A model generated the notes under the pieces. The model saw nothing but the letters and a program-made list of their open reading frames with translations. It made no database searches and was not told where the DNA came from. DNA of 64,000 nucleotides, taken from the NCBI GenBank assembly GCA_937907455.1, contig CALESQ010000111.1, positions 21,454 to 85,453 of the forward strand, given 5' to 3'. Made by a program: the position numbers and the translations under genes. Positions 16,405-50,572 of this stretch are shown one piece after another (position 1 is the stretch's first letter; the number at the start of each line of letters is the position of its first letter). Source of the DNA: an uncultured Caldilineales bacterium. Lineage in GTDB: Bacteria; Chloroflexota; Anaerolineae; JAAEKA01.

Positions 16405-16770
16405 CTAGTGCTCCTCCGCGCCGTTGCTGTGGTCCCACGGCGCGTAGACCAGCCGCCGGCCGCCGCCCTTGATCGTCTCCTGGCGCACCTGCACCAGCAG
16501 GCCCAGGCGCTCCAATTCGGCCAGCCGGTTGCAGAGCGCGGCCGCGCTGGTGGTGGGGTAGAGCGGTCGCAGGTCGGCGCTGCCCACCGTCCCCCCGGCG
16601 CGCGCCAGCCGCATCGCCTCGGCCAGCGCCGGCGACAGCCGCGCCTCCTGGAGGCCCAGCCACACGAAGCGCGGGTCGTTGCCGGCGTCCAGTCCCCGCA
16701 CAGCGTCCACCACCGGCTGCCCGCCGACGGCGAACACCAACAGCTCAGCGTAGTCGGGTTGTTCTGTCAT
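16405..16770 (-). CDS. putative winged-helix DNA-binding protein (121 aa)
   Basis: rc ATG 16768-16770; LCNRLAELERLGLLVQVRQETIKGGGRRLVYAP wHTH-like. Confidence 0.45.
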   Translation of the reverse strand: MTEQPDYAELLVFAVGGQPVVDAVRGLDAGNDPRFVWLGLQEARLSPALAEAMRLARAGGTVGSADLRPLYPTTSAAALCNRLAELERLGLLVQVRQETIKGGGRRLVYAPWDHSNGAEEH

Positions 16771-16885
16771 AGTTACTCTCCAATCGCCCCGCAACGTGCG
16801 GACTTGAACGCTGCGCTCCCGGCCGGCCAGCAGGATGACCGCCTTCCAGTCGCTCAGGAAGCGCAACAGCAGGGCCGGCTTGGGG

Positions 16886-17092
16886 TCACAGCATAAACCC
16901 TTTCCCGCTGGCCTCTGCCTTGGCCTCGACCTCGCACAGGTAGGCTTGCAGCTCAGCCACCAGCGCCAGGACGCTCACCTGCTTGGGCCGGCCGCAGCGG
17001 GGACAAACGATGGTGATCGTCGCCCCGTCGCACTTGGCCAGCAGCTTGCCGCAGCCGTTGCCGGCGCTGTCCTGGCAGCGGATGTCGGACAC
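16886..17092 (-). CDS. com: Mu Com-like zinc-finger translational regulator (68 aa)
   Basis: IRCQDSAGNGCGKLLAKC...ITIVCPRCGRPKQV matches the Com family pattern IRCxxCxKLL..IxIxCPRC. Confidence 0.6.
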   Translation of the reverse strand: MSDIRCQDSAGNGCGKLLAKCDGATITIVCPRCGRPKQVSVLALVAELQAYLCEVEAKAEASGKGFML

Positions 17093-17093
17093 A

Positions 17094-17294
17094 TTACAAC
17101 CTGGTCGCCCAGAGCGCCGGGCGCGCGCCAGCCAACTCCGCGCGGATGCCGGCCAGGGCGGTCGTCGTAGCCTGTACCGCCGGCAGCGGGATGCCGTCGT
17201 CCAGGGCCTGCTGGCGGTAGTAGTCCAACAGCCAAAGCACGCAGCGCTCGGCGTCGGCCCGGTTGGGTTCGCGGGCGGTGATGAGGATGGTCAT
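17094..17294 (-). CDS. hypothetical protein (66 aa)
   Basis: ORF track. Confidence 0.45.
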   Translation of the reverse strand: MTILITAREPNRADAERCVLWLLDYYRQQALDDGIPLPAVQATTTALAGIRAELAGARPALWATRL

Positions 17295-17340
17295 AGGTTA
17301 ATGTGCATCCCGTGGAACTGGTTTGATGTATTTCGCCATA

Positions 17341-17394
17341 CCCTTTGTGTCTATAATAGGTGAAACAGCTTCTGCGACGAATTTAGTGTACAAT
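17341..17394. repeat. left copy of perfect 54-bp inverted repeat (contains TGTCTATAAT -10-like box)
   Basis: ccctttgtgtctataataggtgaaacagcttctgcgacgaatttagtgtacaat is the exact reverse complement of 19992-20045. Confidence 0.9.
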
Positions 17395-17414
17395 TGGCGC
17401 TCCACCCGTCCCGC

Positions 17415-18152
17415 CTATTTGCGTACCACGTAACGCACGTTGTTCCAGTCGTCGCTGCGCACGTAGTAGACCCGCACTTCGCCGCTGCTCAAGTGCTCAG
17501 CGCGCTGAGCCGTGTAGTCCTGCCCAGTCCACTGCACCTTGAACTCGCCAGAGTTGGGCACGAACCCATCGGCGAAGATGCGTTTCTGCAGGGCAGCGCC
17601 CGGGTTGAATTCGATCACCTGCTTGCGTTGGCCGTGCCAAACGAGGGCATCATCCAACTTGCCAAAGATCGGCTCCACATCCTCTAGCTGCCAGACGCCA
17701 TGCAATGGGCCTCGGTGATTGGTGCCACCCTTCATGCCAGTACCAGACAAACAATCAGACGGAGCGCTGGACAACACCCAAAGGTGATACCACGGTCCAT
17801 AGGCGCTGCCTAGGCCAAGGCCGTGCATTCCATCCGAGGCCGTGCGCTTGACAACGCCACGATCTGCCCAGCGATTATCATAGCCCGTCAGGTTGTCGAA
17901 AGTTGGCTCGTTGCCTGGACTGTCCAGACTCGGCCAAGTCATCACCACCGGTTGATTATCCACCGGCATGTTGTTCTTGCCGCGAACTTCAGCCTTGACC
18001 AACGCAGGGCCTTCCGTGCAGAAGATTGCTTGCAAGCGCCAAACTTCCTTGGCATTGCCAATCTTGGCCGGCAATACGACGCAGCCATCATATGTTTGCG
18101 CCAGCCAAGTCAGGCTGCGCTCGGTTCCGTCAACATCAAATACACGTGTCAT
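17415..18152 (-). CDS. hypothetical secreted/cell-wall-associated protein in lysis cassette (245 aa)
   Basis: rc ATG 18150-18152 after AGGAGACAAACG RBS; low-GC. Confidence 0.55.
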   Translation of the reverse strand: MTRVFDVDGTERSLTWLAQTYDGCVVLPAKIGNAKEVWRLQAIFCTEGPALVKAEVRGKNNMPVDNQPVVMTWPSLDSPGNEPTFDNLTGYDNRWADRGVVKRTASDGMHGLGLGSAYGPWYHLWVLSSAPSDCLSGTGMKGGTNHRGPLHGVWQLEDVEPIFGKLDDALVWHGQRKQVIEFNPGAALQKRIFADGFVPNSGEFKVQWTGQDYTAQRAEHLSSGEVRVYYVRSDDWNNVRYVVRK

Positions 18153-18162
18153 CGTTTGTCTC

Positions 18163-19812
18163 CTATGGTTTGTTGACTTGCCTGACGACCCACTGTCCGT
18201 CAGGAGTAAGGTTGGTGGCAAAGAAGGCGACCTCATGGCCGTCAGCGGGGCGATATCCCAGCTGAGTTACCCCCTGCCACGTGCTTCCCGCGCGTACATC
18301 CGTCTCGTTGCCGATGGGTGTGTAGCCCGCCTGACGCATGGCAATCTCGATGGCTGAGACAGGGTTGGGCGAGATGACCTGTGCAGTCTTGGCGACTGCC
18401 CAGATCAGCGAACTGCTGGCGTCGGGACTGTTCAACCAAGGCAGGACAGCGGCCAGTTTGTCGCCAGGGCACGAGGTCTGGTTGCCCGGCACATCGCGGT
18501 GGCCCGCCACCGGCAAGGGCGCAGCAGTCCAAGTGGCCCAGCGCCGTGCTGTCTGAAGGACCCGGCGCAGCACGTCCACTTCCTCGACGGTCGGTTCTTC
18601 ACGGACGAAGCTGCCGGCCAGGCAGACGGCGAGGCCGCGGTCGTTGCCAATCGTGTGGGCGTGATAGCTGCGCGTCCGCGGGTCGTTGAGCAGTGAGACC
18701 ATCACCTTGCCACCAAATGAGCGCACGCCGATGTGATAGCCGATCCCCGGCCAGCCGTTGCTGTTGACGTGGTATTGCGCCACGCTCTGCCACGTTGCCG
18801 CCTTCGATGCCTCGGTGTGGTGCAGAACAATGCGGTCGATGGCTGAAAGCGCCCGCTCGTGATAGACCAGTGTCGCATGGCGAGGCAGCGACCTGGATAG
18901 GTCCTCGTAGTCGGCGCCGAACTCTGCCCTGAGCAGTTCTCCCAGCGGGGGCGGCGCGCTGGGTGCGGTCGGCTCATACGAGCCACCCCGCGCTTGAATG
19001 TGTGCATTGATCATGTCGTTCATCTCCCTGTCCACTTCGAAGTCCTCCCAGCCCATGGGGCCGGCCGTGAAGATGGTGGCCGTCAACACGTAGGGGTCTT
19101 TTGCCAACTCGGCATCGAACATGGCCAACTGCTCCATGTAGTGCGCCCGATCTCGGCAGAACGTCCTCCAGCCCCTCTTGGGCATATCGATCACTCCGCC
19201 ATCCACACCACATTCGGTGATCAGCAGTGGGGGCAGCACGATGCCCGCTTCAATGGCATAGCGCGCGTTCAGGCGATAGCGAAAAGCGTGCCATTCGGTC
19301 ATGCCACTTTCCAAATGCGGATAGTCCAACACCCAGTAGCAGTGCTGAGACCAGTAGTCGCAGGCCGCCAACCCACGGGCGATTTCCTGAAAACAGGCTC
19401 TGCGCTGCGCCTCGTCGCCGCCCGGATTGCCCTCGCTCAGGTTGCCGCCCACAAGCTGCAACCCGGCGCCGTGCATCAGCTCGGCCAGGCGGATCGTGAA
19501 CTCGCTCAGCTGGCGGCAAAACGCCAGATCGGCTACCGGCTGCGGCTCGTTGGGCGCCTCCCAAATGCGGATGTATGGCGCGCGGGCGAATGTGGGCTGG
19601 CAGAAGCCGAACCATGCCTCAGCGCCGGCCGCCCCGCGCCTAACCAAGTCATTGCTGTCATTGTCGGGCATGTACACCCGCCCAATGATCTGCTTTCCCG
19701 GCCAACGATTCTCGCTGGGCGGATCCATGACCTTGATCCAGCGCGCTGCGCTGCTGTTACCATCGGCCCAGTTGGGGTGGGCCTGTAAGTGCAACGACAG
19801 TTTACTTGTCAT
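18163..19812 (-). CDS. two-domain endolysin: N-terminal GH5-like glycoside hydrolase (NEP...ITECG) plus C-terminal N-acetylmuramoyl-L-alanine amidase (Amidase_2/PGRP)
   Basis: WEAPNEP and ITECGVDGG catalytic-type motifs; amidase_2 signature HHTEA..GIGYHIG..HRDV..TSCPG. Confidence 0.75.
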   Translation of the reverse strand: MTSKLSLHLQAHPNWADGNSSAARWIKVMDPPSENRWPGKQIIGRVYMPDNDSNDLVRRGAAGAEAWFGFCQPTFARAPYIRIWEAPNEPQPVADLAFCRQLSEFTIRLAELMHGAGLQLVGGNLSEGNPGGDEAQRRACFQEIARGLAACDYWSQHCYWVLDYPHLESGMTEWHAFRYRLNARYAIEAGIVLPPLLITECGVDGGVIDMPKRGWRTFCRDRAHYMEQLAMFDAELAKDPYVLTATIFTAGPMGWEDFEVDREMNDMINAHIQARGGSYEPTAPSAPPPLGELLRAEFGADYEDLSRSLPRHATLVYHERALSAIDRIVLHHTEASKAATWQSVAQYHVNSNGWPGIGYHIGVRSFGGKVMVSLLNDPRTRSYHAHTIGNDRGLAVCLAGSFVREEPTVEEVDVLRRVLQTARRWATWTAAPLPVAGHRDVPGNQTSCPGDKLAAVLPWLNSPDASSSLIWAVAKTAQVISPNPVSAIEIAMRQAGYTPIGNETDVRAGSTWQGVTQLGYRPADGHEVAFFATNLTPDGQWVVRQVNKP

Positions 19813-19830
19813 GCTGTTTCTTCTCCTTCT

Positions 19831-19971
19831 TCATATCCAACTCAGCTTGCACTCAGCACTGAACCTGCGTCGTTTGGCCTTCGGCACGACTTCCGGGTTT
19901 GACTGTACTACCAGTGAGTGGCCGTTCAGTGATCCGTTCTTGCTGACTTTGACCGGTTGCTTGTGTGACAT
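19831..19971 (-). CDS. small basic protein (46 aa) between right IR and endolysin
   Basis: rc ATG 19969-19971 preceded by GAAGGAG RBS; MSHKQPVKVSKNGSL... Confidence 0.4.
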   Translation of the reverse strand: MSHKQPVKVSKNGSLNGHSLVVQSNPEVVPKAKRRRFSAECKLSWI

Positions 19972-19991
19972 CTTCTTGACTCCTTCGGTGT

Positions 19992-20045
19992 ATTGTACAC
20001 TAAATTCGTCGCAGAAGCTGTTTCACCTATTATAGACACAAAGGG
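19992..20045. repeat. right copy of perfect 54-bp inverted repeat (likely promoter for lysis cassette)
   Basis: exact reverse complement of 17341-17394; TATAAT on minus strand upstream of 19971 gene. Confidence 0.9.
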
Positions 20046-20120
20046 CTTGATATATGCGCATTCCTGCATTCTCCTATTGCCTCACCACGAAGGGGATTAC
20101 ACTTTCATTTGACGAGATGT

Positions 20121-21995
20121 TTACAACACAAACCCCACGCCGCCCACCGGCCCCCGCAAATCCTGCCAGGACCAGTACGCGGCGTCAGTCAGGTCGAACG
20201 GCTTGACCTTGGGAAAACGGCGCAGCGCCTTCTCCAGGGTGACGTGGGTGCCCAGGACGTGGATGATGCGGCCCCGTTCGTAGTCGGCCAGCATCTGCTG
20301 CGCGCGATGGGCCTTGGGGCCGTGGCCGGCGCCGGCCTTGTCGGAGCGGAACGGCGGCGGGTCGCTGATCCCTAAGCCGGCGGCCGCCTCCCGATAGACG
20401 CTGGCCCAGGTGTCGCCGCCCTGGTCGGTCTCCACGCCCACCGCCTCGGCGCCCAACTCGACCGCCTTGCGGATGGCGCGCTGGAGGGCGTCCTGCGGAC
20501 TGGTGACGTGCTCCCACGAAAACAGGCGGAAGATCGTGCCGTCCGGGCCGATGCCGTCGGCCTGGATGCCCTGGCTGTCCGAGGCGTCGGTGGACGTGAC
20601 AGCCGGGTCTACCCAGACCACGATGCGCACCAGCGCCGGCAGCTCGTCCCAGGCGCAGCGCATGAACTCCAGGTGGTCGAACATGCCGCCGGCAGCCTCC
20701 TCGACCTCGTGCTGGGCCTCGTGCAGGAAGGCCGTCAAGCCCCAGGCGTCGAGCTGCTGCTGGGCGTGCTCCATGCTCTGGCCGACCCAGATCGACTGGC
20801 CGCCGGTGATGACGTAGCGCCCGCCGCGCATCTCGTAGGTCAGGTTGCGCACCGCCGGGTGGGGACCTGAGACGATGCGCTCGCGCAGGAAGTCGGCGCG
20901 GCCGTCGGCCATGCGGCTGAACAGCCCGTTGGGGATAATCAGGTTCTGGATGCCAATCACCGCCACGTCGGGCGAGCCGGCCGGCAGCAGGGACGTGGTG
21001 AGGGTGGTGATCTTCTTGGCCGTGTAGCCGGGGTTGTCCAGCTTGTTGTCCAGGTCATCCAGGCAGTTGTGGGAGAGGCCGAACGCGGTCAGGTAGGTAT
21101 GCGAGGCCGTGGTGATGGGCGCGAAGGTCCTGACGCCGGCCGGCTGGACGCTGCGCACCCGGTTCCAGAAGGCGCCGTTCAGTAGGCCGTAGCCGATCTG
21201 GTCGCCCGGCTCCAGGTCGCGCGCCTCGATCCAGCCGCCGTCTTCAACCACGTTCTTGCGCGCCCAATAGCGGTGTTCAGGCGTCACCACCTCGGCAAAC
21301 GACAGGCCGGCCACCTGCACCTCCAGGCCCTCAGCCTGGCGCAGGCCCAGCAGTCCGGGGTGCTCCTCGACCATCACCCAGCGGCCCATGTCGTAAACGG
21401 GCGTGCCGACCTCGTGGCAGATCAAGTCGGGCCGGTTCTCCTCGACTTTCGAGCCGCGGTAGGCCGTGTCGAAGCCGATGGCGTCCACCGTGAAGCCGCT
21501 GGCCGCGCGCATTCGCTCACGCCGCCAGCCGCGCGTGTTGCCGTACTTGCCCTTCTGCGGCGCGCCCAGCATGGGGTAGAACTCGGCGATGGCCGACGAC
21601 TCCAGCAGCACGGCGATGTTCTCGACCGACTTGTCGGCCAGCTCCTGGGTCTCGCGCACGTACCAGGCGTACTTGCGCACGCCGCGCGCTCCCAGGGCCA
21701 CGGTGGCCATCTCGGCGGAGGACGACTTGCCGCCGCCGCGCGGCCAAATCGCGATGAAGGCCGGCGGGCGCTGGCCCCGCTTTAGCGCCCAGACGTGATC
21801 CCAGAACTCGGCATGGTGGTCGCCGAACTCGAAGCCGACGTAGGCCGGGAACATGGCGCGCAGCCAGCCGGCCCAGTCAGCCGGCGGCGGGTCGATGCGC
21901 TGGGCGCGGCTGCGCGGGTCGATCTCGTCGGCCGCGCGCCGCAGCAGCATGTCGTAGGCCGTCCCGAACTGCGGGAGGAGGGAGGAGACCGTCAT
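20121..21995 (-). CDS. terL: terminase large subunit (ATPase plus nuclease) containing a mini-intein
   Basis: Walker A IWPRGGGKSSS; nuclease-domain similarity; 624 aa immediately downstream of the terS-like gene. Confidence 0.8.
   Translation of the reverse strand: MTVSSLLPQFGTAYDMLLRRAADEIDPRSRAQRIDPPPADWAGWLRAMFPAYVGFEFGDHHAEFWDHVWALKRGQRPPAFIAIWPRGGGKSSSAEMATVALGARGVRKYAWYVRETQELADKSVENIAVLLESSAIAEFYPMLGAPQKGKYGNTRGWRRERMRAASGFTVDAIGFDTAYRGSKVEENRPDLICHEVGTPVYDMGRWVMVEEHPGLLGLRQAEGLEVQVAGLSFAEVVTPEHRYWARKNVVEDGGWIEARDLEPGDQIGYGLLNGAFWNRVRSVQPAGVRTFAPITTASHTYLTAFGLSHNCLDDLDNKLDNPGYTAKKITTLTTSLLPAGSPDVAVIGIQNLIIPNGLFSRMADGRADFLRERIVSGPHPAVRNLTYEMRGGRYVITGGQSIWVGQSMEHAQQQLDAWGLTAFLHEAQHEVEEAAGGMFDHLEFMRCAWDELPALVRIVVWVDPAVTSTDASDSQGIQADGIGPDGTIFRLFSWEHVTSPQDALQRAIRKAVELGAEAVGVETDQGGDTWASVYREAAAGLGISDPPPFRSDKAGAGHGPKAHRAQQMLADYERGRIIHVLGTHVTLEKALRRFPKVKPFDLTDAAYWSWQDLRGPVGGVGFVL
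21066..21419 (-). other. mini-intein (Hint domain, ~118 aa, no homing endonuclease) inside terL
   Basis: starts CHEVGT (Cys1 and Thr6 of block A), block B TPEH, C-terminal block VRTFAPITTASHTYLTAFGLSHN followed by +1 Cys. Confidence 0.65.
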
Positions 21996-24694: not shown

Positions 24695-24724
24695 CTTGAC
24701 AGCTTTTGCTTTTGGGTGTATAAT
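24695..24724 (+). promoter_or_regulatory. conserved promoter cassette copy 4
   Basis: TTGACA 24695-24700, TATAAT 24719-24724. Confidence 0.65.
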
Positions 24725-24748
24725 TCCCTTAGCAGTAGAGAACAAACC

Positions 24749-24771
24749 AAATCCGCAAATTTTGCGGATTT
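24749..24771. promoter_or_regulatory. palindromic operator-like site copy 3
   Basis: aaatccgcaaattttgcggattt upstream of parB-like RBS. Confidence 0.6.
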
Positions 24772-24793
24772 GCCCAGCAAGGAGGCACGACCC

Positions 24794-25693
24794 ATGACCG
24801 GCGAGCGCACCATCCAGCTAATCGACATGCAGCAGATCGTCCCTGGCGACAACGGCACCGGCCACCAAGATCGCACCGTCTTTGACCCGGCCGGCTTGGC
24901 CGAGTTAGCCGGCTCGATCCAGCAGCACGGCCTCTTGCAGCCCATCACCGTCCGGCCTATCGGCGAAAGCGACCTCTACCGCATCGTCGCCGGCGAGCGC
25001 CGCTTCCGGGCCTGCGAGCTGCTGGGCTGGCTGGAAATCCCGGCCATCGTGGCCGACGTGACCGCCGACGAGGCCGCGGCCCTGATGCTGGCCGAGAACA
25101 CGAGCCGGGAAGACCTCAACCCGGTGGACGAGGCCAACGCCTACCAGGTGCGCATCGAGCGCTTGGGCTGGACGGTGGCCGACTGCGCCAGAGCTGCCGG
25201 CGTGTCCGAGGCCCGTGTCTTGTTCCGGCTCAAGCTGCTCAAGCTGCGGCCCGACCTGCTGGACCTGGTGCGCACGGGCAACCTACCGCTGGGCTATGCG
25301 CAGATCATCGCCGACGGCAACCTGGACGTGAACCGCCAGCTCCTGGCCCTGCGGGCGCTGCGCAACAACCCGTCGCCTACGCCCGGTTGGTTCCGCCGCC
25401 AGGTGGGCGAGTTGCTGACCCAGCAGGCCCAGGCCAGCATGTTCGACGACGGGCCGCTGTTCGGCGGGCTGGACTTCGACGAGCCGGCCCAGCACGCCAC
25501 GCCCATCGAACCGCCCACGCCGGCCACGGTCGCGCCGCCGGCAGTAGGGCAGACGCCCAGGGAGATCGTCGCCGGCCAGATAGGCTTCTGGGAACAGGCC
25601 GCCGACGCTTGGGCTGATCTGGGCAAGCCGTTCAAGCGCCAAGAGTGTAAGGCGGCAGCCCAAGCGCTGGGGTTCCTGTTTGCCACGCTCTGA
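24794..25693 (+). CDS. ParB/Sulfiredoxin-domain protein (ParB-like nuclease/partition protein)
   Basis: ATG 24794 after CAAGGAGGCACGACC; ParB N-domain motifs LQPITVRP..YRIVAGERRFRA. Confidence 0.75.
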   Translation: MTGERTIQLIDMQQIVPGDNGTGHQDRTVFDPAGLAELAGSIQQHGLLQPITVRPIGESDLYRIVAGERRFRACELLGWLEIPAIVADVTADEAAALMLAENTSREDLNPVDEANAYQVRIERLGWTVADCARAAGVSEARVLFRLKLLKLRPDLLDLVRTGNLPLGYAQIIADGNLDVNRQLLALRALRNNPSPTPGWFRRQVGELLTQQAQASMFDDGPLFGGLDFDEPAQHATPIEPPTPATVAPPAVGQTPREIVAGQIGFWEQAADAWADLGKPFKRQECKAAAQALGFLFATL

Positions 25694-29994: not shown

Positions 29995-31272
29995 CTAAAG
30001 GGAAGCGCGCAAAAGACTGTAGTCGTATCCATCACTGCGCTGTAGTAGCGTAAGGTGTTTGTGGTGTACGCTGAAACCGCTAAGAGAAAAAAACGGTGAT
30101 CGACGGATAGTTATCCTACCAACATGCGTACCTGTATGCTTGCCTCTTGGCACAACCGCCTTCACGATGTCACCGGTCTGGTAGCCAAGGTAGCGCTTCT
30201 CATTCCCGCGGTGGCGCTTGGGGAAACCGTACTTGTCAGTTTGGCACATCTGGCGCGTGCCACGTCCGGTCGCCTTGATGCGTAATACCTGCATCTCAGG
30301 GTTCAGCATCACACCCAACCCCGATATACCCACGCACGCCGCGTCGATCCAATGCGCTTTGGGATAGCCGTTTTCGTGCCGGTTCCGGGCGGTACGGCCA
30401 CCGCTGCCCCACTCGACGCGCAGGCCGGTTTGACCAAGCGCGTCAGCGAGGGCGTTACGAGTCGTGTTGACTGATGCCGCATCTCTGAGTGGCTTCTTCA
30501 CTTGCCGCTCGATATTGGCCGCCTTCTCTGGCCCGACGAAGACCTCCAGCCGCTGGTTGCCGCGCTTCTGGTTGCACTCATAGCAGGCCCAGGCCAGATT
30601 GTCGATGCGGTCGGAACCGCCGAGGCTGCGAGGGGTGATGTGCTCGATGGTTCCCCGCACTGCCGGCCGCGCGCCGCAGTAGATGCAGGTGTGGTTGAAC
30701 TTGTGCAGCAGATACTCGCGCACCTCCGTACCTTGCAAGGTGCCCTGTTGGTACTCTACGCCGCTGATCTCCGGGTTGCGCATCGCCTGCACGTCGAACT
30801 TGACGCGCTCTAGGCTGATCATGCTGACTGGCGCAAAACGGCGCAGCCTGCCGACCCAGGTCATTACGCTGTCCACCTTGCTGCGCATCGACGGCGCCAA
30901 CCATCCTTGAAGGCGACGGCGGTTGTCAAAACGAGCGGGGCGGTAGCGGGTCTTGCGGTTGCGCCGGCCGCGCCGCAGTTGCCGTCGCGCTGTCATCTTG
31001 TTAGCCACGTTGGTACGGTGCTGCAACTCAGCAGCCCAGACAACTTCGCCGTTGGTTACAACAGCCAAGCCAGTTTGTTTGCTGCCGGGGTCGATCTTGA
31101 CCTGGACCGGCTGCACGTCGCCATTTTTTCGGTCGTGTAGGATAATGGTAAAAGGGTAGCGCCTGTAGACGCTGGCCCGCCCACTCTTGAGGAGTTCTCG
31201 CGCCCGTGCTGGGTGGCAGGGCATCAGGGGTTTACGGTTCGTATCTAGTACGAAAACTGAGTTTTGTTTCAT
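29995..31272 (-). CDS. iscB: IscB-family RNA-guided nuclease (OMEGA / proto-Cas9; PLMP, RuvC-I/II/III, Arg-rich bridge helix, HNH)
   Basis: NRKPLMPCHPARA (PLMP); KIDPGSKQTGLAVV (RuvC-I); RRQLRRGRRNRKTRYRPARFDNRRR; CIYCG..HITPRSLGGSDRIDNLAWACYECNQKRGN (HNH); HWIDAACVG (RuvC-III); 425 aa. Confidence 0.85.
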   Translation of the reverse strand: MKQNSVFVLDTNRKPLMPCHPARARELLKSGRASVYRRYPFTIILHDRKNGDVQPVQVKIDPGSKQTGLAVVTNGEVVWAAELQHRTNVANKMTARRQLRRGRRNRKTRYRPARFDNRRRLQGWLAPSMRSKVDSVMTWVGRLRRFAPVSMISLERVKFDVQAMRNPEISGVEYQQGTLQGTEVREYLLHKFNHTCIYCGARPAVRGTIEHITPRSLGGSDRIDNLAWACYECNQKRGNQRLEVFVGPEKAANIERQVKKPLRDAASVNTTRNALADALGQTGLRVEWGSGGRTARNRHENGYPKAHWIDAACVGISGLGVMLNPEMQVLRIKATGRGTRQMCQTDKYGFPKRHRGNEKRYLGYQTGDIVKAVVPRGKHTGTHVGRITIRRSPFFSLSGFSVHHKHLTLLQRSDGYDYSLLRASL

Positions 31273-48946: not shown

Positions 48947-50572
48947 GTGAAACGACTGGCCCTCCCCTTGACAATAGTCGCCGCCGGTTTGGCCGCGGCT
49001 TTTGTCGTAGGAAGTCTCGAACTCGTTGACCGCATCGACAGAGCGGTTGACCGGCGCTTCGGCGACTGGCTCTACGTAGCCGTCGTCGTGGTGCTGTTTG
49101 TCGCGTTCGCCGTCGTCGTCCTGAGCATCGCCGCAGCCGTTGCCGGTCGCGCGCTGGCCTGGTCTCGCCAAATCTCCCCCAACCGGCACGGCCTGTTTGC
49201 AATCTTCTTCCACCGCGGCCAGCCGCTCAATTTCAACGAGCCGGGCGCGCAATCCCTGTCGGCCCTATCGGCCCACAAGCGCCCCACCGCGCCGCTGGCC
49301 CAGCGCGTCATCGAGGCCAACTACCGCCTGCAACGGCCGGCCAACCTGCCTGAGCTGGCGCCCCCGCCTGACGCCCCGCCAGAGATCGACTACGCCGCGT
49401 CGCTGCCGCGCGAGGTCTCACTCTACTCGGCCCCCCTGCCGCGCGAGTTGTCGCTGCCGGTCGGTGTGGACGCCGCCGGCCGTCAGGTGGCCATCCCGCT
49501 GCGCAACCTGGGCAACGTTCTGATCGGCGGCCGGCCCGGCGGCGGCAAGTCCGAGCTGCTGGCCGGTTTCGTCGCCGGCCTGGCCCGCCAGGACGCCACC
49601 GGCGTGCGCGTCCAGATCGCCGTGGCCGACATGAAGCTGGTCTCGTTCGGGAACATTCCGCCCGACCTGTCGCTGCTGCGCTGGCCGGTCGCGGTGGACA
49701 TGGCGCCGGCGCAGGAGTTGATCGAGCAGGTGCTGGAGGAAGTGCGCCGGCGCTACGCCCTGCTCCAGCAAGCCGGCGTGCGCTCCCTGGACGGCTACAT
49801 CCAGCGCACCGGCGAGCCGCTGCCCCACCTAGTGACGATCATCGACGAGATTGCCGACCTGAGCGCGTCGCGCATCAGCCGGGCCTCGTTTGTGGAGGTC
49901 GCCAGCGAGATCGCCCGCAAGGGTCGCGCCGCCGGCGTCACCCTGGTCATGGCCACCCAGCGCCCCTCCTCCGACACGCTGCCGGCCGACCTGCGCAACC
50001 TGGAAGGCGTGGCCGTCGCGTTCGCCGTCGAGCGCCCAGAGGACAGCCGCCTGATCCTGGGCCGGCGCGGCGCGGAGATGCTGCCCGCCATCCCCGGCCG
50101 CTGCCTGGTGCGCATGGAGCGCGCCGTCGTCGCGCAAGCCTACCTGGCCGGCCTGGACGAAGCCGGCGGCCACTCCTCCTTCGACGCCTTCCTGGCCGGC
50201 CTGCCGCGCGCCGATGCGGTGCTGACGCCTGTACCGGCCCGTACCAGCATACCGATGCCCGCGCCGGCCCCGATACCGGCCCAAAACACGCCCAGCGCCG
50301 GTATACCGGCGTCTGTACCGCCGTTTCGTACCGATGAGCCAGAGGCTCCCTACACGCCGGAGCAGATCGCTCACATCGTCCGGTTGTATCGCGAGAGCGT
50401 CTCTGATCGTTACCCGAAAGGCAGCCTGAAGGCAGTTCAGCGGGCCATCTACCCCGACCAAGCGACTGGCGGCCACTGGTGGTATCGCATTCGCGATACA
50501 GTGCGCGAGGCGGGATATGACACCGCCCTGCCCACCACTCCCCGCCGGCACCGGCGCGTCGCGCGACAGTAG
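48947..50572 (+). CDS. FtsK/SpoIIIE-family DNA translocase-like ATPase with N-terminal TM segments (TraB-like)
   Basis: Walker A GGRPGGGKSELL; Walker B TIIDEIADL; MATQRPS; 541 aa. Confidence 0.75.
   Translation: MKRLALPLTIVAAGLAAAFVVGSLELVDRIDRAVDRRFGDWLYVAVVVVLFVAFAVVVLSIAAAVAGRALAWSRQISPNRHGLFAIFFHRGQPLNFNEPGAQSLSALSAHKRPTAPLAQRVIEANYRLQRPANLPELAPPPDAPPEIDYAASLPREVSLYSAPLPRELSLPVGVDAAGRQVAIPLRNLGNVLIGGRPGGGKSELLAGFVAGLARQDATGVRVQIAVADMKLVSFGNIPPDLSLLRWPVAVDMAPAQELIEQVLEEVRRRYALLQQAGVRSLDGYIQRTGEPLPHLVTIIDEIADLSASRISRASFVEVASEIARKGRAAGVTLVMATQRPSSDTLPADLRNLEGVAVAFAVERPEDSRLILGRRGAEMLPAIPGRCLVRMERAVVAQAYLAGLDEAGGHSSFDAFLAGLPRADAVLTPVPARTSIPMPAPAPIPAQNTPSAGIPASVPPFRTDEPEAPYTPEQIAHIVRLYRESVSDRYPKGSLKAVQRAIYPDQATGGHWWYRIRDTVREAGYDTALPTTPRRHRRVARQ
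50490..50570 (+). repeat. 81-bp direct repeat copy 1 (3' end of the ftsK-like gene)
   Basis: identical to 52382-52462. Confidence 0.85.

Follow-up and report, generated by a model that had tools for sequence, protein, structure and literature searches.

A lysin module flanked by two apparent left ends of an IS3-family insertion sequence in a Chloroflexota phage genome

Contig CALESQ010000111.1 (GenBank assembly GCA_937907455.1), assigned to an uncultured Caldilineales bacterium, contains phage DNA, of which we analysed a stretch of 64,000 nucleotides (positions 21,454 to 85,453 of the forward strand, hereafter the window). Between positions 17341 and 20045 of the window, genes for a 549-aa cell-wall hydrolase and a 245-aa protein are enclosed by two perfect inverted repeats, the arms. 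What are these repeats, and how did they come to surround lysin genes? A preliminary description had suggested a horizontally acquired lysis module, an invertible or hairpin-forming element, or a sense/antisense timing device. Our analysis indicates that both arms are left inverted repeats (IRLs) of an insertion sequence (IS) of the IS3 family; very probably, two inverted IRL copies bracket a foreign lysin module, and the segment is an IS-end-bounded remnant carrying cargo.

Identity of the inverted repeats

The two arms are each 54 nt in length, 100% complementary to each other and separated by 2,597 nt. With up to 3 mismatches allowed, the arm halves matched only these two sites in the 64-kb window, and the shuffle expectation is none (100 shuffles). 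Each arm carries TGTCTATAAT at 8–17 nt from its outer tip, directed inward. Three minus-strand open reading frames (ORFs), coding for 46, 549 and 245 aa, lie between the arms (Table 1). The GC content of the arm-bounded interior is 0.607, compared to 0.69–0.73 in the adjoining 300-nt windows and 0.646–0.659 in the flanking 5 kb; the drop is real but modest. The preliminary description was accurate in all these points, namely the exact 54-bp inverted repeat, the lower-GC interior, the three ORFs and the inward box in each repeat. Megablast with window positions 16500–21000 gave no match among GenBank phages, and a 24-mer taken from the arm gave none among the IMG/VR viral contigs.

A 22-mer from the arm matched 16 contigs from four JGI metagenomes. 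All 16 contain a 54-nt sequence that is 51/54 identical to the arm. On its inner side the sequence continues in one common way (leader, ribosome-binding site, then ATGTCACACAAGC...), while on the outside the same tip is met by 14 different flanks, and most of the contigs end 127 nt into the element. This is the pattern of the terminus of a multicopy mobile element as it appears in assemblies. The same end is also present in four contigs of one Chloroflexota metagenome-assembled genome (MAG). Over Chloroflexota metagenome contigs and MAGs, the IS thus occupies at least 14 sites. In a Caldilinea sp. MAG (JAWOHO010000289.1, L035 921–994), 74/74 positions are identical over arm and leader, including 54/54 of the arm; this copy is a solo IRL plus leader, located between a truncated gene and an unrelated short-chain dehydrogenase gene, to which it is fused. 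No second arm is present within 2.6 kb on that contig. Solo ends of the parent IS thus recur in host genomes.

A complete parent IS of 1,917 bp was recovered (locus L026). It encodes a 146-aa OrfA (PF01527 HTH_Tnp_1, E 2.4e-7) and a 368-aa OrfB (PF00665 rve, E 4.4e-23, plus rve_3); at an A8 slippery run, a -1 frameshift would yield a 527-aa OrfAB. Its IRL and right inverted repeat (IRR) align over about 54 nt and are about 65% alike by our own count from the alignment, with similarity ending at IRL position 54. Identity between the two window arms stops at exactly this point. IS3 elements normally pair one IRL with one IRR; since the two natural ends share only about 65% of their positions, both window arms must be of the IRL type. 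They form an inverted pair of IS3-family IRL ends with the tips outward, and not an IRL/IRR pair. The parent IS carries TATAAT, the -10 element typical of the IRL in this family, 11 nt from the IRL tip, directed inward, and TTGACA 7 nt from the IRR tip, directed outward, a PIRL/Pjunc layout described for IS2 and IS911 (PMC3219604).

The tips of the parent IS read CCCTTTGTG... and ...CACATTCCG (CCC.../...CCG), with TG and CA located 6–7 nt inside, whereas the usual IS3 termini are TG...CA. Despite these tips, its coding content and layout place the element in the IS3 family. The flanks of the parent IS were recovered on the IRL side only, since the contigs break inside the IS; an abutted IRL-IRL or IRR-IRL junction would read …GACACAAAGGG N0-4 CCCTTTGTGTC…. 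Among viral contigs, a search with the IS transposase gave relatives of 39–57% identity only, not this IS. The parent IS is probably native to Caldilinea-like Chloroflexota, the probable host. Many of the IS copies (L019, L022, L025, L028, L029, L033, L034, L036 and L037) adjoin heptamer tandem repeats, GCGTAAT or TAATGCG, which may reflect a target preference of the IS. The right outer flank in the window contains GGAATGCAGGAATGCGCAT at 20050–20075.

The two arms differ in how much of the IS follows them. Window positions 19843–20045 are 85% identical to nt 1–210 of the IS, corresponding to the IRL, the leader and the start of orfA (43 codons); 17341–17394 matches the IRL alone. The N-terminus encoded by the 46-aa ORF (MSHKQPVKV...KRRRFSAECKL) closely follows that of natural OrfA (MSHKQSVKV...KRRNFSAEYKL). 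Because the 19843–20045 segment matches IS nt 1–210, the 46-aa ORF is the truncated start of a transposase gene and not a lysis gene; a frameshifted allele of the stub in a JGI record of the same phage fits a pseudogene. Elsewhere in the 64 kb we found no IS-like sequence, neither orfB nor a complete IS copy. Pfam and PHROG scans of all three cassette ORFs identified no transposase other than the 46-aa orfA' stub, and the same scans of the cassette genes and of those neighbours that were scanned identified no recombinase or invertase. The TATAAT of the arms derives from the IS, in which it functions in expression of the transposase and in the junction promoter.

The insertion site and the assemblies

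Relatives of the phage (L040–L044) encode a large terminase subunit (TerL) that is 98% identical to that of the window, and all of them lack the cassette together with its outer flanks. In these relatives the TerL stop overlaps the start of a 66-aa gene, gp66 (GTGCTGTGACCATCC), which is followed by the same 68-aa and epimerase genes as in the window. At the empty site of L040, CTGTGACCATC occurs once, and the TGA of TerL overlaps the GTG start of the next gene. The flanks in L040–L044 are 96–97% identical to the window; homology ends at 20116 and resumes at 17296 (L040). The extra DNA, 17297–20115 (2,819 bp), consists of a 70-nt AT-rich flank, an arm, 2,597 nt, the second arm and a 44-nt AT-rich flank. 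The 2,819-bp block is probably an insertion at the TerL/gp66 overlap, with a target duplication of about 7–11 bp. This sole target duplication lies 44 and 70 nt outside the arms.

Table 1. Features of the cassette and its borders (positions in the window)
Feature	Coordinates	Strand	Description
TerL (terminase large subunit)	20121..21995	-	upstream of the insertion; phrog_38, E 1.5e-36; 98% homolog P0161
Right target copy	20116..20126	-	TTGTAAACATC; imperfect duplicate; holds TerL stop TAA
Right foreign flank	20046..20115	.	70 nt, AT-rich, GC ~0.45; contains GGAATGCAGGAATGCGCAT; absent from empty-site relatives
Right arm	19992..20045	-	complete IRL, tip at 20045, TATAAT inward to orfA'; 51/54 and 54/54 IS matches
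Leader and orfA stub	19843..19991	-	20-nt leader with GGAG ribosome-binding site, 43 orfA codons; ORF 19831–19971 runs into stop
549-aa cell-wall hydrolase	18163..19812	-	predicted GH-A-like TIM barrel ~1–280; Amidase_2/PGRP 324–451; small C-terminal beta domain
245-aa partner	17415..18152	-	beta-sandwich N-domain, unknown function; ~60–80-aa C-domain common to Chloroflexota wall-associated proteins
3' untranslated region remnant	17395..17414	-	20 nt, truncated at the left arm's inner end; 11/20 by eye to first half of L007 terminator stem
Left arm	17341..17394	+	solo IRL, tip 17341, identical to right arm; no more IS sequence inside
Left foreign flank	17297..17340	.	44 nt, AT-rich, GC 0.43; absent from empty-site relatives
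Left target copy	17286..17296	-	CTATGACCATC; holds ATG start of 66-aa gene
66-aa gene (gp66)	17094..17294	-	downstream neighbour; overlaps TerL stop in relatives

Among the fetched loci, the 70-nt right flank matched only the JGI contig of the same phage (L004). As inverted or direct repeats of a larger element, the 70- and 44-nt flanks were not significant, as 40% of shuffles score as high. IMG/VR relatives of TerL (57–58% identity) were also considered for the empty site and share no downstream synteny; the closer relatives came from a protein search. The TerL/gp66 junction is variable (window 17286–20126; L038 9518–10327; L040 8312–8315), being occupied by the IS-flanked block, by a methyltransferase gene or by nothing. 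The methyltransferase, a 269-aa N6/N4 DNA enzyme, sits at this spot in the more distant relative L038, which indicates that the junction tolerates accessory genes.

The locus is represented by three assemblies. JGI contig Ga0181821_1000926 (101,006 bp; another version of 101,061 bp is on record) is the same phage and contains both arms, the left one in mid-contig. In the ENA contig ERZ795037 NODE_163069 the left arm is present and the contig ends 1 nt beyond it. The linear ends of the JGI record correspond to window positions 19959 and 19971, inside the cassette, with a 13-nt overlap, and the window crosses that junction. The JGI record also lacks 13 nt of the orfA stub (agtcagcaagaac; window 19936–19948 vs L001 1–40), which causes the frameshift mentioned above. 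Since the natural IS has these 13 nt, the allele in the window represents the earlier state. Homology to IS nt 1–210 runs colinearly from 20045 to 19843, across the JGI junction and with the 13 nt included; because it is uninterrupted there, the join is credible.

One could also suspect an assembly artefact, in which a 54-mer (k-1 at k=55) shared by the copies of a multicopy IS led to a wrong join in the de Bruijn graph. In its favour, 54 equals 55 - 1, these communities contain many copies of the parent IS, the JGI ends fall in IS-derived sequence and the ENA contig terminates 1 nt beyond the left arm. However, a contig walk requires each flank/arm/inner junction in the reads, and the left arm is found both in mid-contig in the JGI record and in the independent ENA assembly. 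In addition, other JGI contigs terminate exactly 127 nt into the IS, which would suggest a longer k, and the natural terminal inverted repeat (TIR) itself measures 54 nt. We consider such a mis-join extremely unlikely.

Several neighbouring genes deserve mention. TerL of the window contains an insertion of about 125 aa (window 21030–21400; residues ~200–322, with a CHEVG start and an SHN|C end), which the 485–520-aa homologs lack, the 92%-identical P0162 among them, whereas the relatives with 98% identity have it as well; it is most likely a mini-intein. The 68-aa protein (16886–17092, minus strand) weakly matches Mu Com, a zinc-ribbon regulator of translation (phrog_6417, E 8.5e-5; Pfam E 4e-4, which is below the curated cut-off); its gene is the second one downstream of the insertion and precedes that of a nucleotide-sugar epimerase. 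The close relative L041 carries an IS605 OrfB/TnpB-like gene at 1–621, so these phages tolerate other transposon-derived genes. Other genes in the window code for an HNH endonuclease (29995–31272; phrog_2214, E 4e-131), a ParB-like protein (24716–25693) and an FtsK/SpoIIIE-like protein (48947–50572).

The lysin module

The C-terminal Amidase_2 domain that the preliminary description had assigned to the 549-aa protein was recovered with an E value of 1.9e-13, and the protein also matches the endolysin family phrog_1493 (E 3.2e-19). For the 280-residue N-domain no Pfam match was obtained at E ≤ 10, GH5 (Cellulase PF00150) included, and a PDB profile search returned the amidase only. In the AlphaFold model (predicted local distance difference test, pLDDT, 88), the N-domain consists of eight beta/alpha units. 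N88-E89-P90 follows strand 4 and E200 is located in strand 7, and all four residues are invariant in 33 homologs. These residues form the signature of glycoside hydrolase (GH) clan GH-A, the 4/7 superfamily, and the N-domain is a predicted (beta/alpha)8 barrel of this clan. Foldseek matched the N-domain to GH128, GH2, GH158, GH51 and GH1 structures; the best PDB fold match is GH128, not GH5, and two phage proteins annotated as GH5 match by fold only. Structure prediction and an alignment of the two catalytic Glu residues, both put forward in the preliminary description, thus turned out in favour of the barrel (E89 and E200 being invariant); of its GH5-like domain, the fold stands, and membership of the family is not supported by sequence.

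Searches with the 245-aa protein against Pfam, PHROG and PDB sequences were negative, and no PDB structure matched its fold significantly. In relatives its gene is always located 3' of the 549-aa gene. Homologs join the GH-A barrel to Amidase_2, to Peptidase_M23 or to the N-domain of the 245-aa protein, the last fusion being found in P0024, P0028, P0029 and P0033. The C-terminal 60–80 aa of the 245-aa protein are also the C-terminal part of many lysin homologs and are found again in Anaerolineae CAP-domain, M23 and amidase proteins. Together, the N-domain fusions and the shared C-domain suggest, from sequence comparison, a functional partnership as well as a wall-binding module of Chloroflexota.

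The 549/245 pair is kept in at least 5 other phage contexts, either adjacent to very large proteins that are presumably structural or in the vicinity of an integrase. These loci have a GC content of 0.57–0.60 and no flanking repeats. DNA homology to them is restricted to window 17410–19825, at 76–85% identity; the 20 nt beyond the 245-aa gene partially resemble the first half of the terminator stem found downstream of its homolog in L007. No inverted repeats were found in L005–L008 and L011, no arms in any of the related lysin loci, and no second context of the arm-bounded cassette among the 54 fetched loci. The lysin module therefore appears to be foreign, from a different phage lineage of lower GC. 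The horizontal acquisition in the preliminary description is supported by this 76–85% identity to lower-GC phage modules and by the absence of the module from relatives with 98% identical TerL. As a lysis cassette, the segment contains a peptidoglycan hydrolase (Amidase_2, phrog_1493) and no adjacent holin, since the one small ORF is the orfA fragment, whose product is basic and not hydrophobic. Among the 30 larger ORFs of the window, which covers 64 of 101 kb, there is no second lysin or lysis-category gene.

Origin of the cassette and comparison with known systems

We propose that the cassette is probably a decayed IS-mediated acquisition, resembling a mobile insertion cassette (MIC). IS copies or ends would have come to flank the lysin module in a donor genome, followed by internal deletion or decay. 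The block may then have entered the phage by a non-IS3 route, because no 3–4-bp duplication flanks the arms. Today it would be a transposase-less passenger cassette, with the lysin genes read from the terminase operon and possibly also from the weak -10 promoter of the IRL with its ribosome-binding site. The two IRL ends would remain potential substrates for OrfAB from IS copies of the host, and the identical arms could allow occasional homologous inversion, leaving local expression unchanged. IS elements and their derivatives are seldom found in phage genomes, where strong selection is thought to act against them (PMC3429520); decay of the flanking IS copies fits the strong size constraint on phages (PMC3429520).

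Several points weigh against this proposal. No 3–4-bp target duplication abuts the arms (ata / ctt, in the flanks ...gccata / cttgat...), which leaves transposition of the unit between the arms undemonstrated. The cassette with its arms was found in one phage only, which gives no evidence that it moves as a whole. The end of the left arm coincides exactly with the inner boundary of the IRL, which is unexpected for a random deletion and is not accounted for by this proposal, and the IS tips are not those usual for IS3. Besides, the polarity of the event, an insertion here as against a deletion in the relatives, is judged from composition and foreign homology.

MICs are mobilised in trans (PMC4337579), and this cassette might likewise be an active one, in which OrfAB of the host excises and re-inserts the lysin module, moving it between phage and host genomes. 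Undamaged and complete IRLs with outward tips stand on both sides, as in compound elements, and cognate IS copies are abundant in candidate hosts. However, the arms have no adjoining target duplication, the cassette was found in one genomic context, every other copy of the lysin module lacks arms, and IS3 elements normally pair an IRL with an IRR. Ongoing activity therefore seems rather unlikely to us. A more specific form of the same idea, in which a functional IRL/IRL cassette is moved in trans, the hydrolase module travels between Chloroflexota phages and hosts, and the IS leader places lysin expression under the control of OrfA, is unlikely.

Other explanations would give the arms a role of their own. 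In an RNA element, the arms would pair in the TerL read-through transcript, RNase III would cleave the 54-bp duplex and the cassette mRNA would be excised. The genes are all co-oriented, the predicted duplex energy is -95.8 kcal/mol, and of terminator-like sites, which are fewer than the chance expectation (one found), none lies between TerL and the cassette. But any inverted repeat pairs automatically, so the duplex is a by-product and not evidence of function; moreover, it is not conserved in relatives, and co-transcriptional folding across 2.6 kb is uncertain. We hold this explanation to be quite doubtful. An invertible cassette, in which recombination between the arms flips the lysis genes and alters their expression, is improbable: although 54 bp of perfect inverted identity suffices for homologous recombination and TIR-TIR inversions occur in natural IS copies (PMC3004938), no invertase or recombinase is encoded in or beside the cassette, all three assemblies have the same orientation, with no inverted isomer among them, and inversion would yield an equivalent local arrangement, as the same -10 points inward from both arms. 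With the arms recognised as IS3-family IRL ends, the invertible or hairpin device of the preliminary description is not upheld. Its timing device, in which the right-arm promoter gives lysin mRNA and the left-arm promoter antisense RNA, fares no better. Identical TATAAT hexamers do face inward from both arms. However, a consensus scan found 0 two-hexamer promoters (0.7 expected), no -35 is seen by eye upstream of either copy, so that a full sigma-70 promoter was not found, the hexamer is inherited from the IS, and the arrangement is missing from all related lysin loci. Such a timer is highly improbable.

As a decayed IS-mediated acquisition, the locus is of interest in several respects. IS ends have been retained here around useful cargo in a phage genome, and the empty site in near-identical relatives offers a clean before/after view of a phage gaining a lysin module. 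The identity of the IS ties an uncultivated 101-kb phage to Caldilinea-like Chloroflexota. The cargo represents an uncharacterised lysin architecture, a predicted GH-A barrel plus amidase with an obligate 245-aa partner, and the pair are candidate enzymes for the unusual envelopes of filamentous Chloroflexota. Perfect inverted repeats around genes should be compared with multicopy IS ends before regulation is proposed.

In sequence and fold, the Amidase_2 domain of the 549-aa protein matches the T7 lysozyme/PGRP fold and the endolysins of Thermus phages Ts2631 and Ph2119. Different from those modular amidase endolysins, a GH-A-like barrel outside any Pfam family precedes the amidase here, and a conserved 245-aa partner accompanies it. 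Compared to the canonical holin-endolysin-spanin cassette, the segment has the hydrolase and lacks an adjacent holin. Like the invertible Mu G and P1 C segments (Gin/Cin), it has inverted repeats around a few kb of phage late-function genes; in contrast to them, it has no serine invertase or alternative gene sets, its orientation is the same in all three assemblies, and its repeats are IS ends.

Among transposable elements, the parent IS resembles IS3-family members of the IS2, IS911 and IS150 type in its orfA and orfB, its -1 frameshift at an A run and its imperfect TIRs of about 54 nt, and it shares with IS2 and IS911 the -10 in the IRL and the outward -35 in the IRR. The element in the window, having no orfB, only 43 codons of orfA and no transposase of its own, is not an IS. 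The compound transposons Tn5 and Tn10 likewise have identical outward-facing IS ends around cargo, whereas here neither side has a complete IS copy and one side is a bare TIR. MICs consist of passenger genes between inverted repeats of the IS or transposon type, with no transposase of their own, and cell-wall enzymes are among their cargo, an endopeptidase in the MICs of Bacillus cereus and, with TnXax1, a murein lytic transglycosylase (PMC4337579). Bacillus cereus MIC231 and the TnXax1-derived MICs of Xanthomonas are examples. The cassette differs from them in its 100% identical IRL/IRL ends in place of IRL/IRR, its single known context, its location in a phage genome and its retained orfA stub. 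With its repeats and no internal transposase, it fits the descriptive definition of a MIC. As the adjoining target duplication is absent and no second context was found, we say that it resembles a MIC and do not call it an active one, which we judge unlikely to rather unlikely. The feature is thus largely explained: cargo bounded by IS ends is known from elsewhere, and this example is unusual for its location, a Chloroflexota phage, and for its cargo, a lysin module.

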